The notes beneath the pieces were generated by a model that was not told the DNA's origin, did not search any database, and saw only the letters and a list, made by a program, of their open reading frames with translations. The position numbers and the translations under genes are program-made. Below, piece by piece: positions 5,073 through 42,404 of a stretch of 64,000 bases of DNA. Numbering within the stretch: position 1 is the first letter of the stretch; every line of letters begins with the position of its first letter. Source of the stretch: an uncultured Planctomycetaceae bacterium (GTDB lineage: Bacteria > Planctomycetota > Planctomycetia > Pirellulales > PALSA-1355); contig CAWAUV010000004.1 of assembly GCA_963785305.1 (NCBI GenBank), positions 483,022-547,021 of the forward strand, read 5' to 3'.

Positions 5073-5346
5073 TCGCCGCGAAACGCCGGTGTCCCTCGGC
5101 CGCGGCAATTGTCCGATCAGGCCGCTGGCTCGCGAAAAAACTCTTCGAGGCTAGGCTAAAGCCGGGCAGCCGTTCGCCACCGTCGAGCGTTTGCGCGGCG
5201 GCGAGCTCGACGCTCGGACCTGGACCAGAGTTGATGCGCGCTATCTTTGCATCGGGATACACATTCCAAACCGCCCGCGCCCCGGTCGCGAAATTGTCTT
5301 CCGCAAGAACCGCGCGGGCGCGGCTGCGCCGCGGGAGGAAGAAAAG

Positions 5347-35214: not shown

Positions 35215-38200
35215 ATGCCAAATCACCTCCGTGTTCTCATCGTCGAAGACAACGAAGACGACGCCGAATTCCTGATCATCGCCCTGCGAAACAACGGTTA
35301 CGAGGTTTCCAGCCAGCGAGTGGAAACCGAGGTCGAATTACGGGCGGCGCTGGAACGTCGGGAGTGGGATCTCATTCTCTCGGATTATTCGCTGCCGCAC
35401 TTCAGCGCGCCGGCGGCGTTGTCGCTCGTGAAGCAGAGATGTCTTGACATTCCCTTTATCGTGGTGACAGGCACGATGGGCGAGGACGTGGCCGTGGCCA
35501 CGATGCGATCGGGCGTCAGCGACTACCTGACCAAGGACAACCTAGCGCGTCTCGGGCCGGCCATCGAAAGAGAATTGCGCGATACCCAAAGTCGCCGATC
35601 GCTTCGCGACGCCGAACAGTCCGTCCGGCACTTGGCGGCCGTCGTCCAAGCCTCCGGCGACGCAATAGTCTCCACGACGCCCGATGAAGTCATCTCGAGT
35701 TGGAACCCGGCCGCGGAACGACTCTTCGGCTGGACCGCGGCGGAAGCGATTGGTCGCTCGATGTCGTTCATCGTGCCGCCGGAACTCCGCCGGGAATTAG
35801 CCGGAATCGTCGCGCGGCTCAACGTGGACGAACATGTCGATCAGTTCGAAACACTTCGTCTCCATAAGGACGGACATCGTATCGATGTGTCGGTCACGCT
35901 TTCGCTAATCCGAGACCGAGATGGCCGGATGATTGGAATTTCGAGAGTCACGCGAGACATTACCGAGCGCAAACGAACGGAGGCGTCGCTCCGCGCCAGC
36001 GAGGAGCGGTTCCGGGCCGTGGTGGATTCCGACATGGTCGGGATCGCGTTCTGGAACAAGACCGGTGATTTTATCGACGGCAACGCGTCGCTCCTGCGAA
36101 TCATCGGGCGTGGTCGCGAGGAGATGCGGGCCGGAAAAGTGCGGTGGAGAGATATTACTCCCCTCGAATACCATGCGCTCGACAATCAGGCCTTGGAGCA
36201 AATCGAGCGCACGGGACGTTGCGCCCCTACGACAAAGAGTTTGTTCGGAAGGACGGAACCCGGGTGCCGGTGCTGCTGGGCGCCGCCTGGCTTTCCGAGC
36301 AAAACGTGGGAGTGGCTTACTTCCTCGACATCACGGACCGCAAGCGGCAAGAGGAGGCCATACGGCGGCAGACCCGAATTCTCCGCTCGATTCTGGACAG
36401 TATCGGCGATGGTGTCGTCGTGGCTGATGAAGATGGTAATTTCGTGTTGTTCAATCCGGCCGCCGAGCAAATCCTGCGGCTCGGCATGACCGACACGCGG
36501 CCCGAAAACTGGTCCGAGCGGTACAGCATCTATCAACAGGACGGCGAAACTCTATTTCCGGTCGGGAAGTTGCCGCTCGTCCGGGCGGCGCTGCACGGCG
36601 AAAAAATCGACCAAGTCGAGATGTACATCAATCACGACCGGATTCCCGAGGGACTCTGGATCAGTGTGACCGGCCGGCCGATGTACGATGAAAAACAAAA
36701 CTTGAAAGGCGGCGTCGCGGTTTTCCGCGACATTACCGGCCACAAGCAGGTCGAGCAGCGTCTGGCTCAGGACGCCCTAATGCTTGCGAATGTGCGCGAC
36801 GCCATTATTTTCACCGACACGGAAGGAATCGTTACCTACTGGAACGAAGGGGCGACCCGGTTATTCGGCTTGAATCCCGCGGAGATTCTCGGGCGACCCT
36901 ACTCCGACCGCTATTCCGAGCCCGAACGATCAGCCGTGATCGAGATGATGCGAACAATTACCGCCCAGGGGGAATGGTCGGGTGAGTGGCAAGACCGCCG
37001 CAAGGACGGCGCGGAGATTTGGATCGAGCTTCGCGCGACATGCATCCGCGACTTGCAGGGCCGGTTTTCAGGGATAATGGGTGTCTCTCACGACATCACC
37101 GCCCGGAAGAAAGCGGAGATCGAACGGGATCGCGCATTGCGGCGGCTCCAAGTTCAGATTGATCGGATGCCGCTGGGTTACTTGCTGTTGGACGACGAAT
37201 TTAGCCCACTCGATTGGAACTCGACCGCGGAGCGTATCTTTGGCTTCAGCACGGTGGAGGTTCTGCGGATGCGACCGCCTTTTCTGGAAATCGTGCCGCC
37301 CGAAGCATGGCCCAAGGTGCGGGAATTATTCACCCGCATTCGGGCCGGCGACATGTCGGCGAACGCCACGGTCGAGAACCTGACCAAGGACGGCCGCACG
37401 ATCACCTGCGAGTGGCACAACACGCCACTTTACGATGACAACGGCGATTTTCAGGGCGCGCTCGCTCTTTTTCAGGACATCACCCTTCGGAAGGAATCCG
37501 AGGAAGCGCTGCGCATGCGAGATCGGGCAATTCAAGCCGTCGGGCAGGGGATTTTAATCTCCGACGCCCGGCTGCCCGACCATCCGACGATTTACGTCAG
37601 CCAAGGATTCGAGCAGTTGACGGGGTATACCCAGCCCGAAGCGATCGGAAAAAACTGTCGATTCTTGCAGGGCAAGGACACCGACCCATGCGCAATCGCC
37701 CGGATTCGCGACGCGTTGCGCGACCGGCGGCCATGCACGGTCGAGCTGCTTAACTATCGCAAGAACGGCACGCCGTTTTGGAATGAACTATCGATCTCGC
37801 CCGTAACCAACGGTGATGGGCAATTGACTCATTTCGTGGGTGTGCAAACGGACGTGACCGAGCGGCGAACGCTGGAAGAACAATTCCGCCAGTCCCAGAA
37901 AATGGAAGCGGTGGGTCAACTGGCGGGGGGCGTCGCCCATGACTTCAACAATATGCTGGCGGTCATCTTGGGATACTGCGAGAATCTGTCCGAGTCCACG
38001 AATTTCGACGACCGCGAGCGCGACGCTCTCGATGAAATACGCGACGCGGCACGGCGCGCCGCGGCGCTGACACGCAAGCTGCTGGCGTTTAGCCGCAAGG
38101 AAGTGTTGGAACCGATGGTTCTGAACCTGAACAATATTGTCATGGAAATGGATAAGATGTTGCGGCGGTTGATTGGAGAAGACGTCGAATTGCGGGCGGA

Positions 38201-39038
38201 CATGTCGTCGACCCTTTGGCGGGTAAAGGTCGATCCGGGGCAAATGGAACAGGTTGTCATGAACCTGTCCGTCAACGCCCGCGACGCGATGCCGGACGGC
38301 GGCACGCTGACGCTTGAGACGAGGAATGTCGAATTGCCGGAAGGCGACGCCCAGGCGCCGCCGGACCTCAAACCGGGAAGATATGTGCGGCTCTCGGCAA
38401 GCGATACCGGACACGGCATGGATGCCCGCGTGAAATCGCGCGTCTTCGAACCGTTCTTCACGACAAAAGAACCCGGCAAGGGAACCGGTTTGGGACTTGC
38501 CTCCGTCTATGGGATCATTAAGCAAAGCGACGGACGTATCGCCGTCGTGAGCGAACCTGGACAGGGCGCGAAATTCACGATTTATCTGCCCAGCTCCGGC
38601 GAGGACGAAATCGAGAACGTCGAAGAGCAACCGCCCCCAGTCACTACTCGCGGCGGCGAAACCTTGTTGCTGGTCGAAGACGAAGACAACGTGCGCAAAA
38701 TGCTCGGCCTGATGCTACGGGCCAAGGGCTACCGCGTGATCGAAGCAGAAAACGGCGCCGAGGCGATCGACCTGTTCGAGCAAGCCGAGCACGCGATTCA
38801 ACTGGTGGTCACGGATGTGGTGATGCCCCGGATAAGCGGTCGGAAGCTCGTCGAAAATCTGCGAACCGTTCAGCCCGATATCCATGTGCTCTATATGTCC
38901 GGGTATACCGACGACGCGATCGTTCGCCAAGGGATTCTGGAGCCGAACTTTCACTTTTTGCAAAAACCATTTTTGCCGGCGCAGTTAGCGGCCAAAGTGC
39001 GCGAGGTGCTGGATTCGCGCAACGGATCCGACCACTAA
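35215..39038 (+). CDS. Hybrid sensor kinase REC-(PAS)n-LOV-HisKA-HATPase-REC; frameshift near 36225
   Basis: N-terminal REC, about five PAS domains, LOV motif GKNCRFLQG (37647-37673), QSQKMEAVGQLAGGVAHDFNN, FEPFFTTK, GTGLGL, C-terminal REC. Confidence 0.92.
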
Positions 39039-39073: not shown

Positions 39074-39229
39074 CGTGTGCTCACGCAGCCAAGCCCGGCG
39101 ATGCTCGAAGTCTTGCCCGGAGCGCGGATCGTGGCCACGGAGCATGGCCCGGCCCGCGCAACGGGCGATACAATGATAAACGCCGACTTCCCTGCCGGCG
39201 ACGATCTGCCGCCGAGCATATGCAGGCAT
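39074..39229 (-). mobile_element. Truncated REP-associated/Y1 tyrosine transposase (RAYT-like) remnant
   Basis: MPAYARRQIVAGREVGVYHCIARCAGRAMLRGHDPRSGQDFEHRRAWL matches the N-terminal YHCxxRCVRRAFLCG...FEHRR pattern of that family; it breaks off before the HUH motif. Confidence 0.7.
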
Positions 39230-39466
39230 GCGCGGGCCCTCCGCCGACAGGATGGCGAGCGACGCCAGCAAGTATCCTCGCGACCACATTCCCGTTAAGA
39301 GCAGCTCAAAAAAAATTGCGGCGAACCAACCAGGGACCCCTCCTCGCAATTGTCTGGAAATTGCCCCAGGAAATTGCGTGCTGCTTAAATCCGTGCGTTT
39401 CAGGAAGTTTGCTATCCGCTTCCCCAGTCTGAATCCCTGTCTTTCAATTCCGCGACCAACCCTAAG

Positions 39467-39651
39467 TTCGACTTTCGCGGTTTTCAAAAGTTCCGATAGC
39501 CCGATTCGTCGTGGTTTCTCCGATTTCGGCGCGTTTCCGGCAACCTTCGGCCTCTCGGTAACATGCAAAAATTGGCAGTTCGGCCGTCAAACTGTGCAAA
39601 ACCCACGAGAAATCGGCGATTCGAGTGCTAGCAAAAAACGCGAAACTTGAA
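39467..39651 (-). mobile_element. 185-bp MITE, copy 1
   Basis: Flanked by direct repeat CTAAG (39462-39466, 39652-39656); imperfect TIRs TTCGACTTTCGCG / CGCGAAACTTGAA; reverse complement of 41471-41655. Confidence 0.9.
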
Positions 39652-39824
39652 CTAAGCCGAAGTAGCCGACGGCATGAGGCGGACGAAATCCGTGACTGAC
39701 CGCGTACAGCCCGATGAAATAAGCCCTCGTGGCTTATTTCAACCTCGCCAAGCACGCGGCAAAGCTGCGTGCGGCTCGAGAAATAACGACCTACGTCGCT
39801 ATTTTGCGATCGCATCCATGCGAT

Positions 39825-39992
39825 CTAGTGCTTTGTCACGGCTGAAATGACGGGTAACCCCGTGTGCCATGCCCACGCCCAGCGCGGGCATGTTTTCAAG
39901 CGCCACGCGGAGTCCTCATGCCCACGCAATGCCGTGGGCATGGCGCCACCGAACCAATCCAACCCGTCATTTCAATTGTGACAAGGCACTAG
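39825..39992. mobile_element. 168-bp MITE-like element with CTAG ends containing a REP-like doublet
   Basis: 31-bp TIRs, 27/31 matching (CTAGTGCTTTGTCACGGCTGAAATGACGGGT / ACCCGTCATTTCAATTGTGACAAGGCACTAG); internal hairpins CATGCCCACG...GGGCATG at 39868-39892 and 39917-39942. Confidence 0.8.
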
Positions 39993-40032
39993 CGGCCCGC
40001 TGAATAAATCGACGGGCTGCTAAGTCTGCTCG

Positions 40033-40629
40033 GTGTTTGGGAATAGATATTACGCGGTCGCTTCGCATTCGTCGCAGACTCCGTTGGAGATCGTTATCTC
40101 AGATCCACATACCATTGCCGTGCAGCAGCTATTTGTAAAGCACCAGCAGCAGTTGCGGGTGTTCGTCGCGGCGTTGGCGCCTGATTTTTCGTCAGCTGAC
40201 GAAGTAATGCAGGAGACGTTCCTGGAAGTGTCACGCAAGGCGTCCGCATTTCGGCTGGATTCGAATTTCGCCGCGTGGGCACGAACGATCGCCAAATTCA
40301 AGGTGCTGGCGTTGGCTCGCGACAAACAACGCGCCGCGTCACGCTTAGCAAAGGACGTCGTCGACGCGTTGGCGGCGGCAGCGCCTCTGGAAGACGACGA
40401 CGCCCGACATCGCGACATCATTGACCAGTTGCGAAAATGCCTTGAGCGACTGGCGCCGACGGCCCGCGAGTTGGTGCGCCTGCGATACTTTGGCGAACAC
40501 CTCCCAGCGGAAATGGCCCGACTCCGGTCACAGTCGGTAAACGCGATCAACGTGACCCTCTCGCGGGCTCGTCTGGCGCTCCGGCAATGCATGGAAAGCG
40601 GCCTGAAAGAGATCGAGGCGTCGCCGTGA
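40033..40629 (+). CDS. ECF RNA polymerase sigma-70 factor (planctomycete type)
   Basis: ADEVMQETFL, NFAAWARTIAKF, LRKCLERL, LSRARLALRQC. Start uncertain. Confidence 0.88.
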   Translation: MFGNRYYAVASHSSQTPLEIVISDPHTIAVQQLFVKHQQQLRVFVAALAPDFSSADEVMQETFLEVSRKASAFRLDSNFAAWARTIAKFKVLALARDKQRAASRLAKDVVDALAAAAPLEDDDARHRDIIDQLRKCLERLAPTARELVRLRYFGEHLPAEMARLRSQSVNAINVTLSRARLALRQCMESGLKEIEASP

Positions 40630-42404
40630 ATGACGATCGCCTTTCGTATTTGGTTGACCGCTACCTTGATGTCCAACTCACGGTGGCCGAGCGAGGAGAA
40701 CTCGAGGATCTTCCGCGGCGGTCCGCTACATCACGCGCTCAGTTTTGGCGGGAGGCCCGACTTCACGCTCAGGTACACGAGGCTGAGAGCGGCGCGGAAA
40801 TGGGGATGCCCAAAGGGCAGCGCGTCGTGCCCACGCAATGGAAAAAAAAGTCGCGGCGTTTGCCGTGTTCGTCGCATGCCTTGTGGTCATTGCGAGTGTC
40901 GTGAGTCGACGCCCCCCGAAGCAACCTCAAATGATCGAGACGAAGGCGCATGAGAGCGAATCGACCACCGCGGCGATCGCCGTGCTAAGTCGGACGCTGA
41001 ACGTGGAATGGGACTATCCGGCCGGCGAGCAACTGCCCGGCGCGGCGTTGGAAGCGGGCTGGTTGCGCCTAAAAGGCGGATTTGCCTATGTTCAATTTTT
41101 CAATGGTGTGGGAATCGTGCTCGAAGGTCCGACGGAAGTGCAGCTTGTTTCCGGCGTCGAGGCATTTTGTCGCTCCGGCCGTTTGAGGGCTCAGGTGCCC
41201 CGAGCCGCGAACGGATTCACTGTTCGGACACCCCGACTTCGAGTCGTGGATATTGGCACGGCGTTTGGCGTGTATGTAAGCAGCCAGCGCGACGAAGTCC
41301 ACACGTTCAAGGGCGAGGTAGAGCTACATCCGGCATCGGCCGGGGCACGACAGCTGAAGGTAGGAGAGGCGATCGTCGCGGTCGGAGACGGCAAAATCCA
41401 AGCAATCCCGTGCAATCCAGCGGCATTCATGTCCCCGGCCGACATGGAGCACGAATCAGATGAGTCTCAGTTCAAGTTTCGCGTTTTTTGCTAGCACTCG
41501 AATCGCCGATTTCTCGTGGGTTTTGCACAGTTTGACGGCCGAACTGCCAATTTTTGCATGTTACCGAGAGGCCGAAGGTTGCCGGAAACGCGCCGAAATC
41601 GGAGAAACCACGACGAATCGGGCTATCGGAACTTTTGAAAACCGCGAAAGTCGAACTCAGGGGCGCCGATTAAAGGCGTGGCGCGATTCGTCGGCGCGAT
41701 TCAGGAGAGATCCGTCACTCGTCGTGCTCTTTGATTTTGAGCAAGTTTCATGGGTCGATCGCGTGCTACGGAATCTGGCGCCGGGAGCAATCGCTGATGA
41801 CGCCGCGGTCGTTGGTTGCGGCAAGGCCGAGGGGCGATGGCTCGGCAAAGGCGCGATAGAGTTTCGGAATCTGAGCGATCGTGTCCGCGTGCGTGTTCCG
41901 GGCACGCATGAGTCGTTAACCTTGGCGACTTGGGTTCGCGTCGATCGACTGGAGGGCCGCTTCAATTCACTGTTCATGACGGACGCATTCGAGCTCGGGG
42001 CCGTGCATTGGCAGATCCGCGGCAACGGCAGCCTGCATCTTGCCGTGTCGGGGCCCGCGAACGAGCCCGCCACGAATTACAACTACGATTCGCCCGGAAT
42101 ATTTACCACCGAAAGACTAGGCCAGTGGACTCATCTGGCGATGGTGCTCGACGGATCTCGAGGCCAGATGATACATTATGTGGACGGCCAGCCTGTCGGC
42201 CGATTTGCGCTGTCCAAGGAGGTTGCACTTCACATCGAGCACGGAGAGCTGGGAAACTGGAATCCGGGCAATTCATCGGACCGTGCGCCAATTCGCTACC
42301 TCAGTGGCCGTATGGACGAGTTTGCAATGTTTGGGCGGGCGTTGAGTGACCAGGAGATTATCGACGTCTACAAGGCCGGATCGCCCGAGCCACGAACGCC
42401 GTAG
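40626..42404 (+). pseudogene. FecR-like anti-sigma/sensor with C-terminal LamG domain, interrupted by a MITE (also a poly-A frameshift at 40842-40849)
   Basis: LVDRYLD N-terminus, TM segment, FecR GFTVRTP..RVVDIGTAFGV..GEVE. Removing 41471-41660 rejoins HESDESQ|GRRLKAW into LamG (GQWTHLAMV, GRMDEFAMFGRALS). Confidence 0.85.
41471..41655 (+). mobile_element. 185-bp MITE, copy 2 (inserted in the FecR-LamG gene)
   Basis: Flanked by direct repeat CTCAG (41466-41470, 41656-41660); appears identical to copy 1 in inverted orientation. Confidence 0.92.

Follow-up and report, generated by a model that had tools for sequence, protein, structure and literature searches.

A recently spread family of 185-bp miniature inverted-repeat elements and its candidate IS701-family parent in a planctomycete genome

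The 64,000-nt stretch of DNA analysed here (the window, to which all positions given without a contig name refer) corresponds to C4:483022-547021 in the 6.4-Mb, 9-contig assembly (G000) of an uncultured Planctomycetaceae bacterium. It contains two identical, inverted 185-bp copies of a MITE (miniature inverted-repeat transposable element), one on each side of a gene for an extracytoplasmic function (ECF) sigma factor. We consider it very likely that this MITE is mobilised in trans by an insertion sequence (IS) of the IS701 family, with the resident element denoted IS-A as the best candidate parent, and that the pairing around the sigma factor gene is incidental. The two copies and the direct repeats that flank them are the following.

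39462..39466, no strand: left target duplication of MITE copy A, CTAAG (read from the sequence)
39467..39651, + strand: MITE copy A, 185 bp, intergenic, left end TTCGACTTTCGCGG
39652..39656, no strand: right target duplication of MITE copy A, CTAAG (read from the sequence)
41466..41470, no strand: left target duplication of MITE copy B, CTCAG (read from the sequence)
41471..41655, - strand: MITE copy B, exact reverse complement of copy A, between regions for a FecR and a LamG domain
41656..41660, no strand: right target duplication of MITE copy B, CTCAG (read from the sequence)

A script comparison found 0 mismatches over 185 nt between 39467-39651 and the reverse complement of 41471-41655, an exact inverted repeat that for its length cannot be a product of chance. 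The inverted arms reported by a repeat finder are longer (39460-39656 and 41466-41662, 197 nt, 99% complementary) since similar 5-nt words flank both sides of each copy, and the sole mismatch within them is the central base of the CTAAG and CTCAG duplications. The interval marked in an earlier, model-made annotation of the window (hereinafter the original prediction), 39462-41660, runs exactly from the first through the last of these flanking words, and its account of two identical 185-bp copies in opposite orientation, each with direct repeats of its own, was accurate. Because each copy carries its own matched duplication, the independent insertion of copies A and B is supported.

The search for all copies and the target logo that the original prediction proposed could both be obtained. 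BLASTN of the 185-nt unit against the genome returned 20 full-length copies on contigs C4, C5, C6, C7 and C8, 17 of them identical and the other three with one substitution each (at base 2, at base 185 and at an internal base). Exact 5-bp direct repeats, identified by script, flank all 20 copies, each in a different context. Read in the orientation of the element, the base counts at the five positions of the duplication are C12/G6/T2, T18/A1/G1, A9/T5/G3/C3, A20 and G17/C3 (n = 20), so that the target consensus is (C/G)TNAG. Eight of the 20 duplications are strict CTNAG, 11 deviate from it at one position and one at two; examples of the deviating words are TTAAG, GTCAG, GATAG, CTTAC, CTGAC, CTAAC and CGAAG. 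The strict motif occurs at 5239 positions of the genome, 1202 of these being CTWAG, and chance would provide only about 0.016 strict targets among 20; six of the eight strict targets that were used are CTWAG. The original prediction had allowed two readings of the ends, a 5-bp CTNAG duplication or a 3-bp TNA duplication with G...C termini. Position 1 of the duplication is not C in eight copies and position 5 is not G in three, and each time the same base recurs on the opposite side. Because the outer positions of the repeat vary, and co-vary on both sides, the target duplication is 5 bp, not 3 bp, and only the first of the two readings stands.

The terminal inverted repeats of the MITE are imperfect: TTCGACTTTCGCG and TTCAAGTTTCGCG agree at 11 of 13 positions, or at 15 of 18 when extended. 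The ORFs (open reading frames) that run through copy A (39228-39650 on the + strand, 39462-39815 on the - strand) gave no Pfam match, and the element has no transposase, which supports its non-autonomous nature as originally proposed. Short, without a transposase gene, bounded by terminal inverted repeats and target duplications, dispersed in numerous copies and accompanied by a partner IS that shares one of its ends, it has the characters by which MITEs are recognised. The possibility of a structured RNA or regulatory cassette was also considered and dropped: no Rfam family was detected in the MITE at E up to 1, a search for sigma-70-like promoters found none, the one weak terminator-like hairpin per copy is no more than shuffled sequences yield, and the element folds no better than its shuffles (z = -0.28). 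Read in the orientation of copy B, the MITE has one frame that no stop codon interrupts (window 41460-42404; locus L011, 2-1729), so that ORFs starting upstream run through the element, and the ATG at 41460 reads across copy B into the LamG part of the gene discussed below; this open frame is probably a chance feature of a genome with 62.6% G+C.

BLASTN of the MITE also yielded four pairs of 25-26-nt matches to its right end, with about 1.46 kb between the members of each pair. These are the ends of IS-A, which has four copies, 1463/1464 bp long, whose inverted ends of 25 bp, TTCAAGTTTCGCGTTTTTTGCTAGC, are perfect. The genome search suggested in the original prediction, for a transposase with ends of the form GTTC(A/G)A(G/C)TTTCGCG, thus led to a resident element, and the motif itself was correct save for its leading G. 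The four copies differ at 6 alignment columns, and a 449-aa transposase ORF is open in three of them and broken by a 1-nt insertion in the fourth. Matching flanks are found at two copies (CTTAG at one, CTTCC at the other), those of another copy show a single mismatch and those of the last show two. The predicted transposase matches the NCBIfam model NF049999 (IS701 family) with 361.7 bits, the cut-off being 170, over residues 17-429 of 449, and Pfam DDE_5 with 89.4 bits. The remaining matches are to other IS701, IS4, IS1634 and NF041680 models, all under their cut-offs; the profile matches include no IS5 model. Filed on its transposase, as is done here, IS-A belongs to the IS701 family. More than 3500 homologues of this protein were found at E <= 1e-20, some of them named 'SRSO17 transposase' in their source. 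Some IS5-family groups use TNA or CTAG targets with 3- or 4-bp duplications, and the MITE resembles them in its palindromic target with a T-N-A core and differs from them in the transposase family and in its 5-bp duplication; the IS5-family likeness put forward in the original prediction can thus be set aside.

The MITE family appears to be young and to have spread recently, a conclusion supported by the fact that 17 of its 20 copies are identical and the other three are one base off; the two insertions in the window can accordingly be called recent as well as independent, as they originally were. Seven of the 20 reconstructed empty sites fall in open frames of at least 400 aa. Two of these frames extend to the limit examined on either side of the site (998 and 1001 codons), and represent giant immunoglobulin (Ig)-domain protein genes with Big_3_5, He_PIG and Golvesin_C domains (Pfam) on both sides. 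Two older repeats, R1 and R2, that occupy the same intergenic region as copy A are only 73-96% identical to their copies in the window. Given the identity of the copies, the disrupted genes and the intact transposase genes, we infer that the MITE is still able to move and, in this sense, would be 'active'. Alternatively, the family could be the frozen remnant of a past burst, immobile now, and both copies in the window inert scars. Two of the three variant copies are substituted within the terminal repeat (positions 2 and 185), as decaying ends would be. Nevertheless, the identity of 17 copies, the presence of three intact transposase genes with matching ends and the insertions inside large genes, which selection would be expected to purge over time, make a frozen burst unlikely.

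The relationship between the MITE and IS-A is restricted to the ends. At its right end, the MITE, as seen in copy A, shares 26 nt without a difference with the right end of the 1463-bp IS-A. At its left end, TTCGACTTTCGCGGTTTT, it matches the IS-A end in 11 of the first 13 positions and in 15 of the first 18, with positions 4 and 6 among those that differ. For the internal bases, 130-odd in number, the genome contains no other match. As only one end is shared and the interior is unmatched, the MITE is no plain internal deletion derivative of IS-A. A tblastn search of the genome with the transposase revealed a second related element, IS-B, of 1432 bp and with ends TTCGACTTTTGCAC, which is about 63% identical to IS-A at the protein level and 65.8% identical at the DNA level. 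Three full copies, 99.4-99.7% identical and with open frames of at least 471 aa, and one partial copy of IS-B are present (C7:1165375-1166694, C2:44053-45372, C5:455570-456877 and C2:81758-82954), and the flanks match at none of the three full copies. Over its first 9 nt, the MITE left end equals the IS-B end, and the CGCG that comes next is that of IS-A; overall, the MITE end agrees with that of IS-B at 15 of 18 positions, against 26 identical nt shared with IS-A.

These comparisons bear on a second alternative, that the MITE is mobilised mainly by IS-B or by both transposases, one for each of its unlike ends. In addition to the first 9 nt of the left end, in which IS-A differs at two positions, this alternative can draw on the near identity of the IS-B copies and their open frames, which make IS-B look recently active too, and on the MITE copy at C7:1161319, which has an IS-B copy about 4 kb away. 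The longest common stretch is nonetheless with IS-A, matching flanks are found at two of four IS-A copies but at none of the three full IS-B copies, and one MITE copy lies just 385 nt from an IS-A copy on contig C6. Furthermore, at locus L021 in another genome, a single related IS has TTCAAC at one end and TTCGAC at the other. Since positions 4 and 6 may thus differ within one IS, both unlike MITE ends would be tolerable to one transposase of this clade, and a single enzyme plausibly serves both. Predominant or joint mobilisation by IS-B accordingly strikes us as distinctly unlikely.

Outside this genome, relatives of the transposase were identified at 78 loci (best-segment identity 46-83%, mostly 55-70%), most of them in Planctomycetota (Blastopirellula marina DSM 3645 and Aeoliella straminimaris among others) and some in Myxococcota and other phyla. 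A script that looked for ends within 3 mismatches of the IS-A 13-mer and 1300-1700 nt apart found 25 end pairs; the pair at L029 (1335 nt, unrelated ends) was dropped as spurious, and both flanks were readable for 22 of the 24 that were left. The ends of the clade read TTC(A/G)A(C/G)TTT(C/T)GC(A/G). At 13 of the 22 loci the 5-nt flanks are identical, and always CTAAG, CTTAG or CTGAG; at six, both flanks are CTNAG words that disagree in the central base, and at three the flanks are of other types. Three of the nine discordant loci, L024, L025 and L040, come from one Thermoguttaceae assembly and share an identical left flank of at least 65 nt, which places these ISs inside another repeat. At L043, the related IS is bordered by a long inverted repeat of at least 55 nt. 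Collectively, these four loci appear to be nested in other repeats or in longer composite structures.

By contrast with the IS clade, the MITE was seen only in the genome analysed here, among those searched. In five other genomes with related ISs, a 17-nt degenerate end motif produced no MITE-sized end pair: its 22 matches occur in four of the five genomes, and 18 of them form nine pairs about 1.43 kb apart, as in full ISs, the other four being unpaired. A search of 40 related genomes, 24 from the same family, 16 from the same order and none from the genus itself, did not find the MITE either. The 25-nt IS end had 0 exact matches in a genome contig collection, a 36-nt internal MITE stretch had 0 exact matches in a metagenome contig collection, and a search of a plasmid collection with IS-A DNA in distant mode gave no match. 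A 21-nt stretch of the left end hit two loci, both of them chance matches in an unrelated coding region otherwise unlike the MITE or the ISs. In the literature library searched, and outside ISfinder, we found no description of the MITE or of a CTNAG-specific IS701 clade. Among what could be searched, the MITE represents a new family of the ordinary bacterial mini-transposon type.

On this basis, the following scenario can be proposed. A co-resident IS701-family element, for which IS-A, with its 26 nt in common with one MITE end, is the best candidate, would supply in trans the DDE transposase that moves the non-coding MITE; the identity of the acting transposase we infer from the sequences. 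The enzyme would recognise the two imperfect ends, TTCGACTTTCGCG and TTCAAGTTTCGCG, and excise the element, presumably by cut-and-paste chemistry as in the IS4/IS701 group. Re-insertion would take place at (C/G)TNAG, with CTWAG preferred, through a 5-nt staggered cut whose repair would leave the 5-bp duplication. In the window, copy A inserted into an intergenic stretch crowded with repeats, upstream of the ECF sigma factor gene, and copy B into the cognate FecR-LamG anti-sigma gene, thereby severing its C-terminal domain.

Within the IS701 family, the small ISAba11 group is described with 5-bp duplications, and its elements are about 1.1 kb long. In the 2008 description of the IS701 family by De Palmenaer, Siguier and Mahillon, its members are 1400-1550 bp long, have ends of the form ---YACT-Y--YR and make highly conserved duplications, exactly 4 bp in almost all of the 27 elements; the same text notes that the end consensus does not represent the whole family (PMC2266710). 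IS-A, with 1463 bp and one ORF, falls within this size range (PMC2266710). Of the seven conserved positions of this consensus, which does not stand for the whole family, IS-A agrees at five and the MITE left end and IS-B at six (PMC2266710). The strong palindromic target choice of the IS-A/MITE group is a point of likeness to the family. The difference lies in the duplication, which here is 5 bp at CTNAG (20 of 20 MITE copies, and one IS-A copy with CTTCC on both sides) instead of the 4 bp given in that description (PMC2266710). Among bacterial MITEs, MITEAba12 is presented as an element mobilised in trans by a resident IS (PMC6382973). Like other elements of this kind, the MITE described here is small and non-coding, has inverted ends and a target duplication, and exists in near-identical copies that outnumber its parent (20 versus 4). 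Unlike them, it takes only one end from a resident IS, has a two-IS hybrid as the other end and contains a core without a detectable source; its 5-bp duplication and its restriction to the present genome, among those searched, also set it apart.

Several of these observations weigh against mobilisation by an IS701-family parent with IS-A as its best candidate. The flanks differ at two of the four IS-A copies and are not identical at nine of the 22 related IS loci in other genomes; the MITE did not arise by simple deletion within IS-A, only 26 nt at one end being matched; IS-B, which shares the first 9 nt of the left end, is a second candidate parent; and the 4-bp duplication reported for almost all of the 27 IS701 elements is at variance with the 5 bp observed here (PMC2266710). 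A more far-reaching interpretation, which we offer as a tentative possibility, is that the MITE is chimeric, with one IS-A end and one IS-A/IS-B hybrid end served by two transposases or by cross-recognition, that the clade is an undescribed IS701 subgroup integrating at CTNAG with 5-bp duplication, and that, as a side effect of the insertion in the anti-sigma gene, the ECF sigma factor would lose its sensor-linked brake.

The genes around the two copies are arranged as follows.

36144-39038: PAS/histidine-kinase/receiver protein (Pfam)
40033..40629, + strand: ECF-type sigma factor gene with Sigma70_r2 and Sigma70_r4_2 domains (Pfam)
40626..40849, + strand: N-terminal cytoplasmic part of the anti-sigma factor, with a GTG start that overlaps the sigma stop; frame lost at the A8 run 40842-40849
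40838..41470, + strand: transmembrane helix and FecR domain of the anti-sigma factor (Pfam), cut off by copy B
41661..42404, + strand: severed C-terminal part of the anti-sigma factor, Laminin_G_3 (LamG) domain (Pfam)

Copy A sits 382 nt upstream of the start of the sigma ORF, in a 600-nt gap (39432-40033) that also holds R1 and R2. The ORF of the FecR part runs 24 nt into copy B and stops at 41494. Deletion of 190 nt, namely copy B and one of its duplications, joins the FecR and LamG parts into one open frame of 475 codons. At locus L095, in a genome of the same order (G040), a single ORF of 549 aa, with both a FecR and a Laminin_G_3 domain, lies downstream of a sigma factor gene, and both pieces from the window align to this ORF colinearly with no gap at the insertion point: residue 183 of the N piece corresponds to residue 257 of the L095 protein and residue 2 of the C piece to about residue 285, leaving 28 versus 27 residues in between. 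Because the pieces are colinear with the single L095 ORF and the frame is restored by excision, copy B can be taken to split a predicted FecR-LamG anti-sigma gene between its two domains. The N-terminal part that precedes the helix is 72 aa long, compared with about 74 aa in L095; no significant alignment was obtained for this short segment. Beyond the A8 run (40842-40849), the transmembrane helix is encoded in the same frame as the FecR part. This change of frame may be genuine, and hence a second lesion that inactivates the gene, or reflect an assembly error in the homopolymer. Further downstream, the window encodes DUF1552 and PSCyt/PSD proteins typical of Planctomycetota (Pfam).

Copies A and B are not the only close pair in this genome. 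Three pairs of MITE copies lie within 7 kb of each other, compared with 0.41 expected (P = 0.009, 20000 simulations), and four within 15 kb, compared with 0.88 expected (P = 0.016). Contig C6 (166,723 bp) carries four of the 20 MITE copies, where 0.52 would be expected, together with one copy of IS-A, and may be a plasmid or an island that serves as a hot spot for these elements. The simplest reason for such clustering, and for two copies 1.8 kb apart in the window, is short-range hopping.

The original prediction had suggested that the inverted pair could invert or co-mobilise the segment that it encloses, in other words that the two copies form a functional unit, either a composite transposon carrying the sigma gene and the N-terminus of the anti-sigma gene or a cassette invertible through its 185-bp arms. 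The outer ends of the pair indeed constitute a perfect inverted repeat of the TTCGAC type, with 1.8 kb between the inverted copies, and in the remaining two close pairs, with spacings of 3.7 and 6.3 kb, the copies likewise have opposite orientations; yet three inverted pairs out of three have a chance probability of 0.125, and local hopping accounts for the clustering. Different words flank the pair on its outer sides, CTAAG on one and CTCAG on the other, so it did not insert as one unit, and with no common outer duplication and no second site for the cargo (tblastn of the anti-sigma pieces finds only this locus in the genome) a composite transposon was rejected. Replicative inversion as the origin of the pair was likewise excluded, each copy having kept its own matched duplication; for the same reason no odd number of inversions can have taken place, and the assembled orientation is the original one. 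Recombination between the 185-nt inverted arms is physically possible, and nothing observed supports its occurrence or use; an inversion would merely part the sigma gene from pieces of an already broken gene. A functional unit is thus highly improbable, and short-range hopping of the MITE most likely produced the inverted arrangement around the sigma gene as a side effect. Repeats are the commonest place of assembly error, but misplacement of one or both copies can practically be dismissed, given the unique flanks and exact 5-bp duplication of each, the frame colinear with a homologue that excision of copy B restores, and the megabase-sized contigs, which also resolve the 1.4-kb ISs.

Taken as an incidental pair within a probably trans-mobilised family, the two copies reveal no new kind of mobile element or regulatory device. 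What the family offers is a clean and resolved example of an apparently very recent MITE burst in a planctomycete genome in which candidate parent ISs can be identified, and in which the target rule is settled as a 5-bp duplication at (C/G)TNAG with CTWAG preferred. For genome annotation, the genes broken by the MITE, which include the predicted anti-sigma factor gene and two giant surface-protein genes, would be miscalled. For IS classification, a clade of IS701 type appears to make 5-bp duplications, compared with 4 bp in the 2008 description (PMC2266710). Finally, planctomycetes are short of genetic tools, and a small element with a candidate transposase and a defined target could be of use in building them.

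The two older repeats in the intergenic region next to copy A are the following.

39707..39822, no strand: dispersed repeat R1, 116 bp; 22 near-full-length loci, 76-94% identical to the window copy
39825..39992, no strand: palindromic repeat R2, 168 bp, inverted ends of 31 nt, CTAG termini; 46 near-full-length loci, 73-96% identical to the window copy

R1 includes a short hairpin, and its last letters are ...AACAGGCTG, after which comes a CTNAG-like word; three of the 20 MITE copies (C7:699841, C7:712019 and C8:812893) are inserted exactly at this word; the R1 end motif also flanks the related IS at L043 in another genome. In several copies of R2 the 4-nt end words co-vary (GTAG/GTAG, TTAG/TTAG, CTAC/CTAC), suggesting that R2 is an older MITE with a 4-bp duplication.

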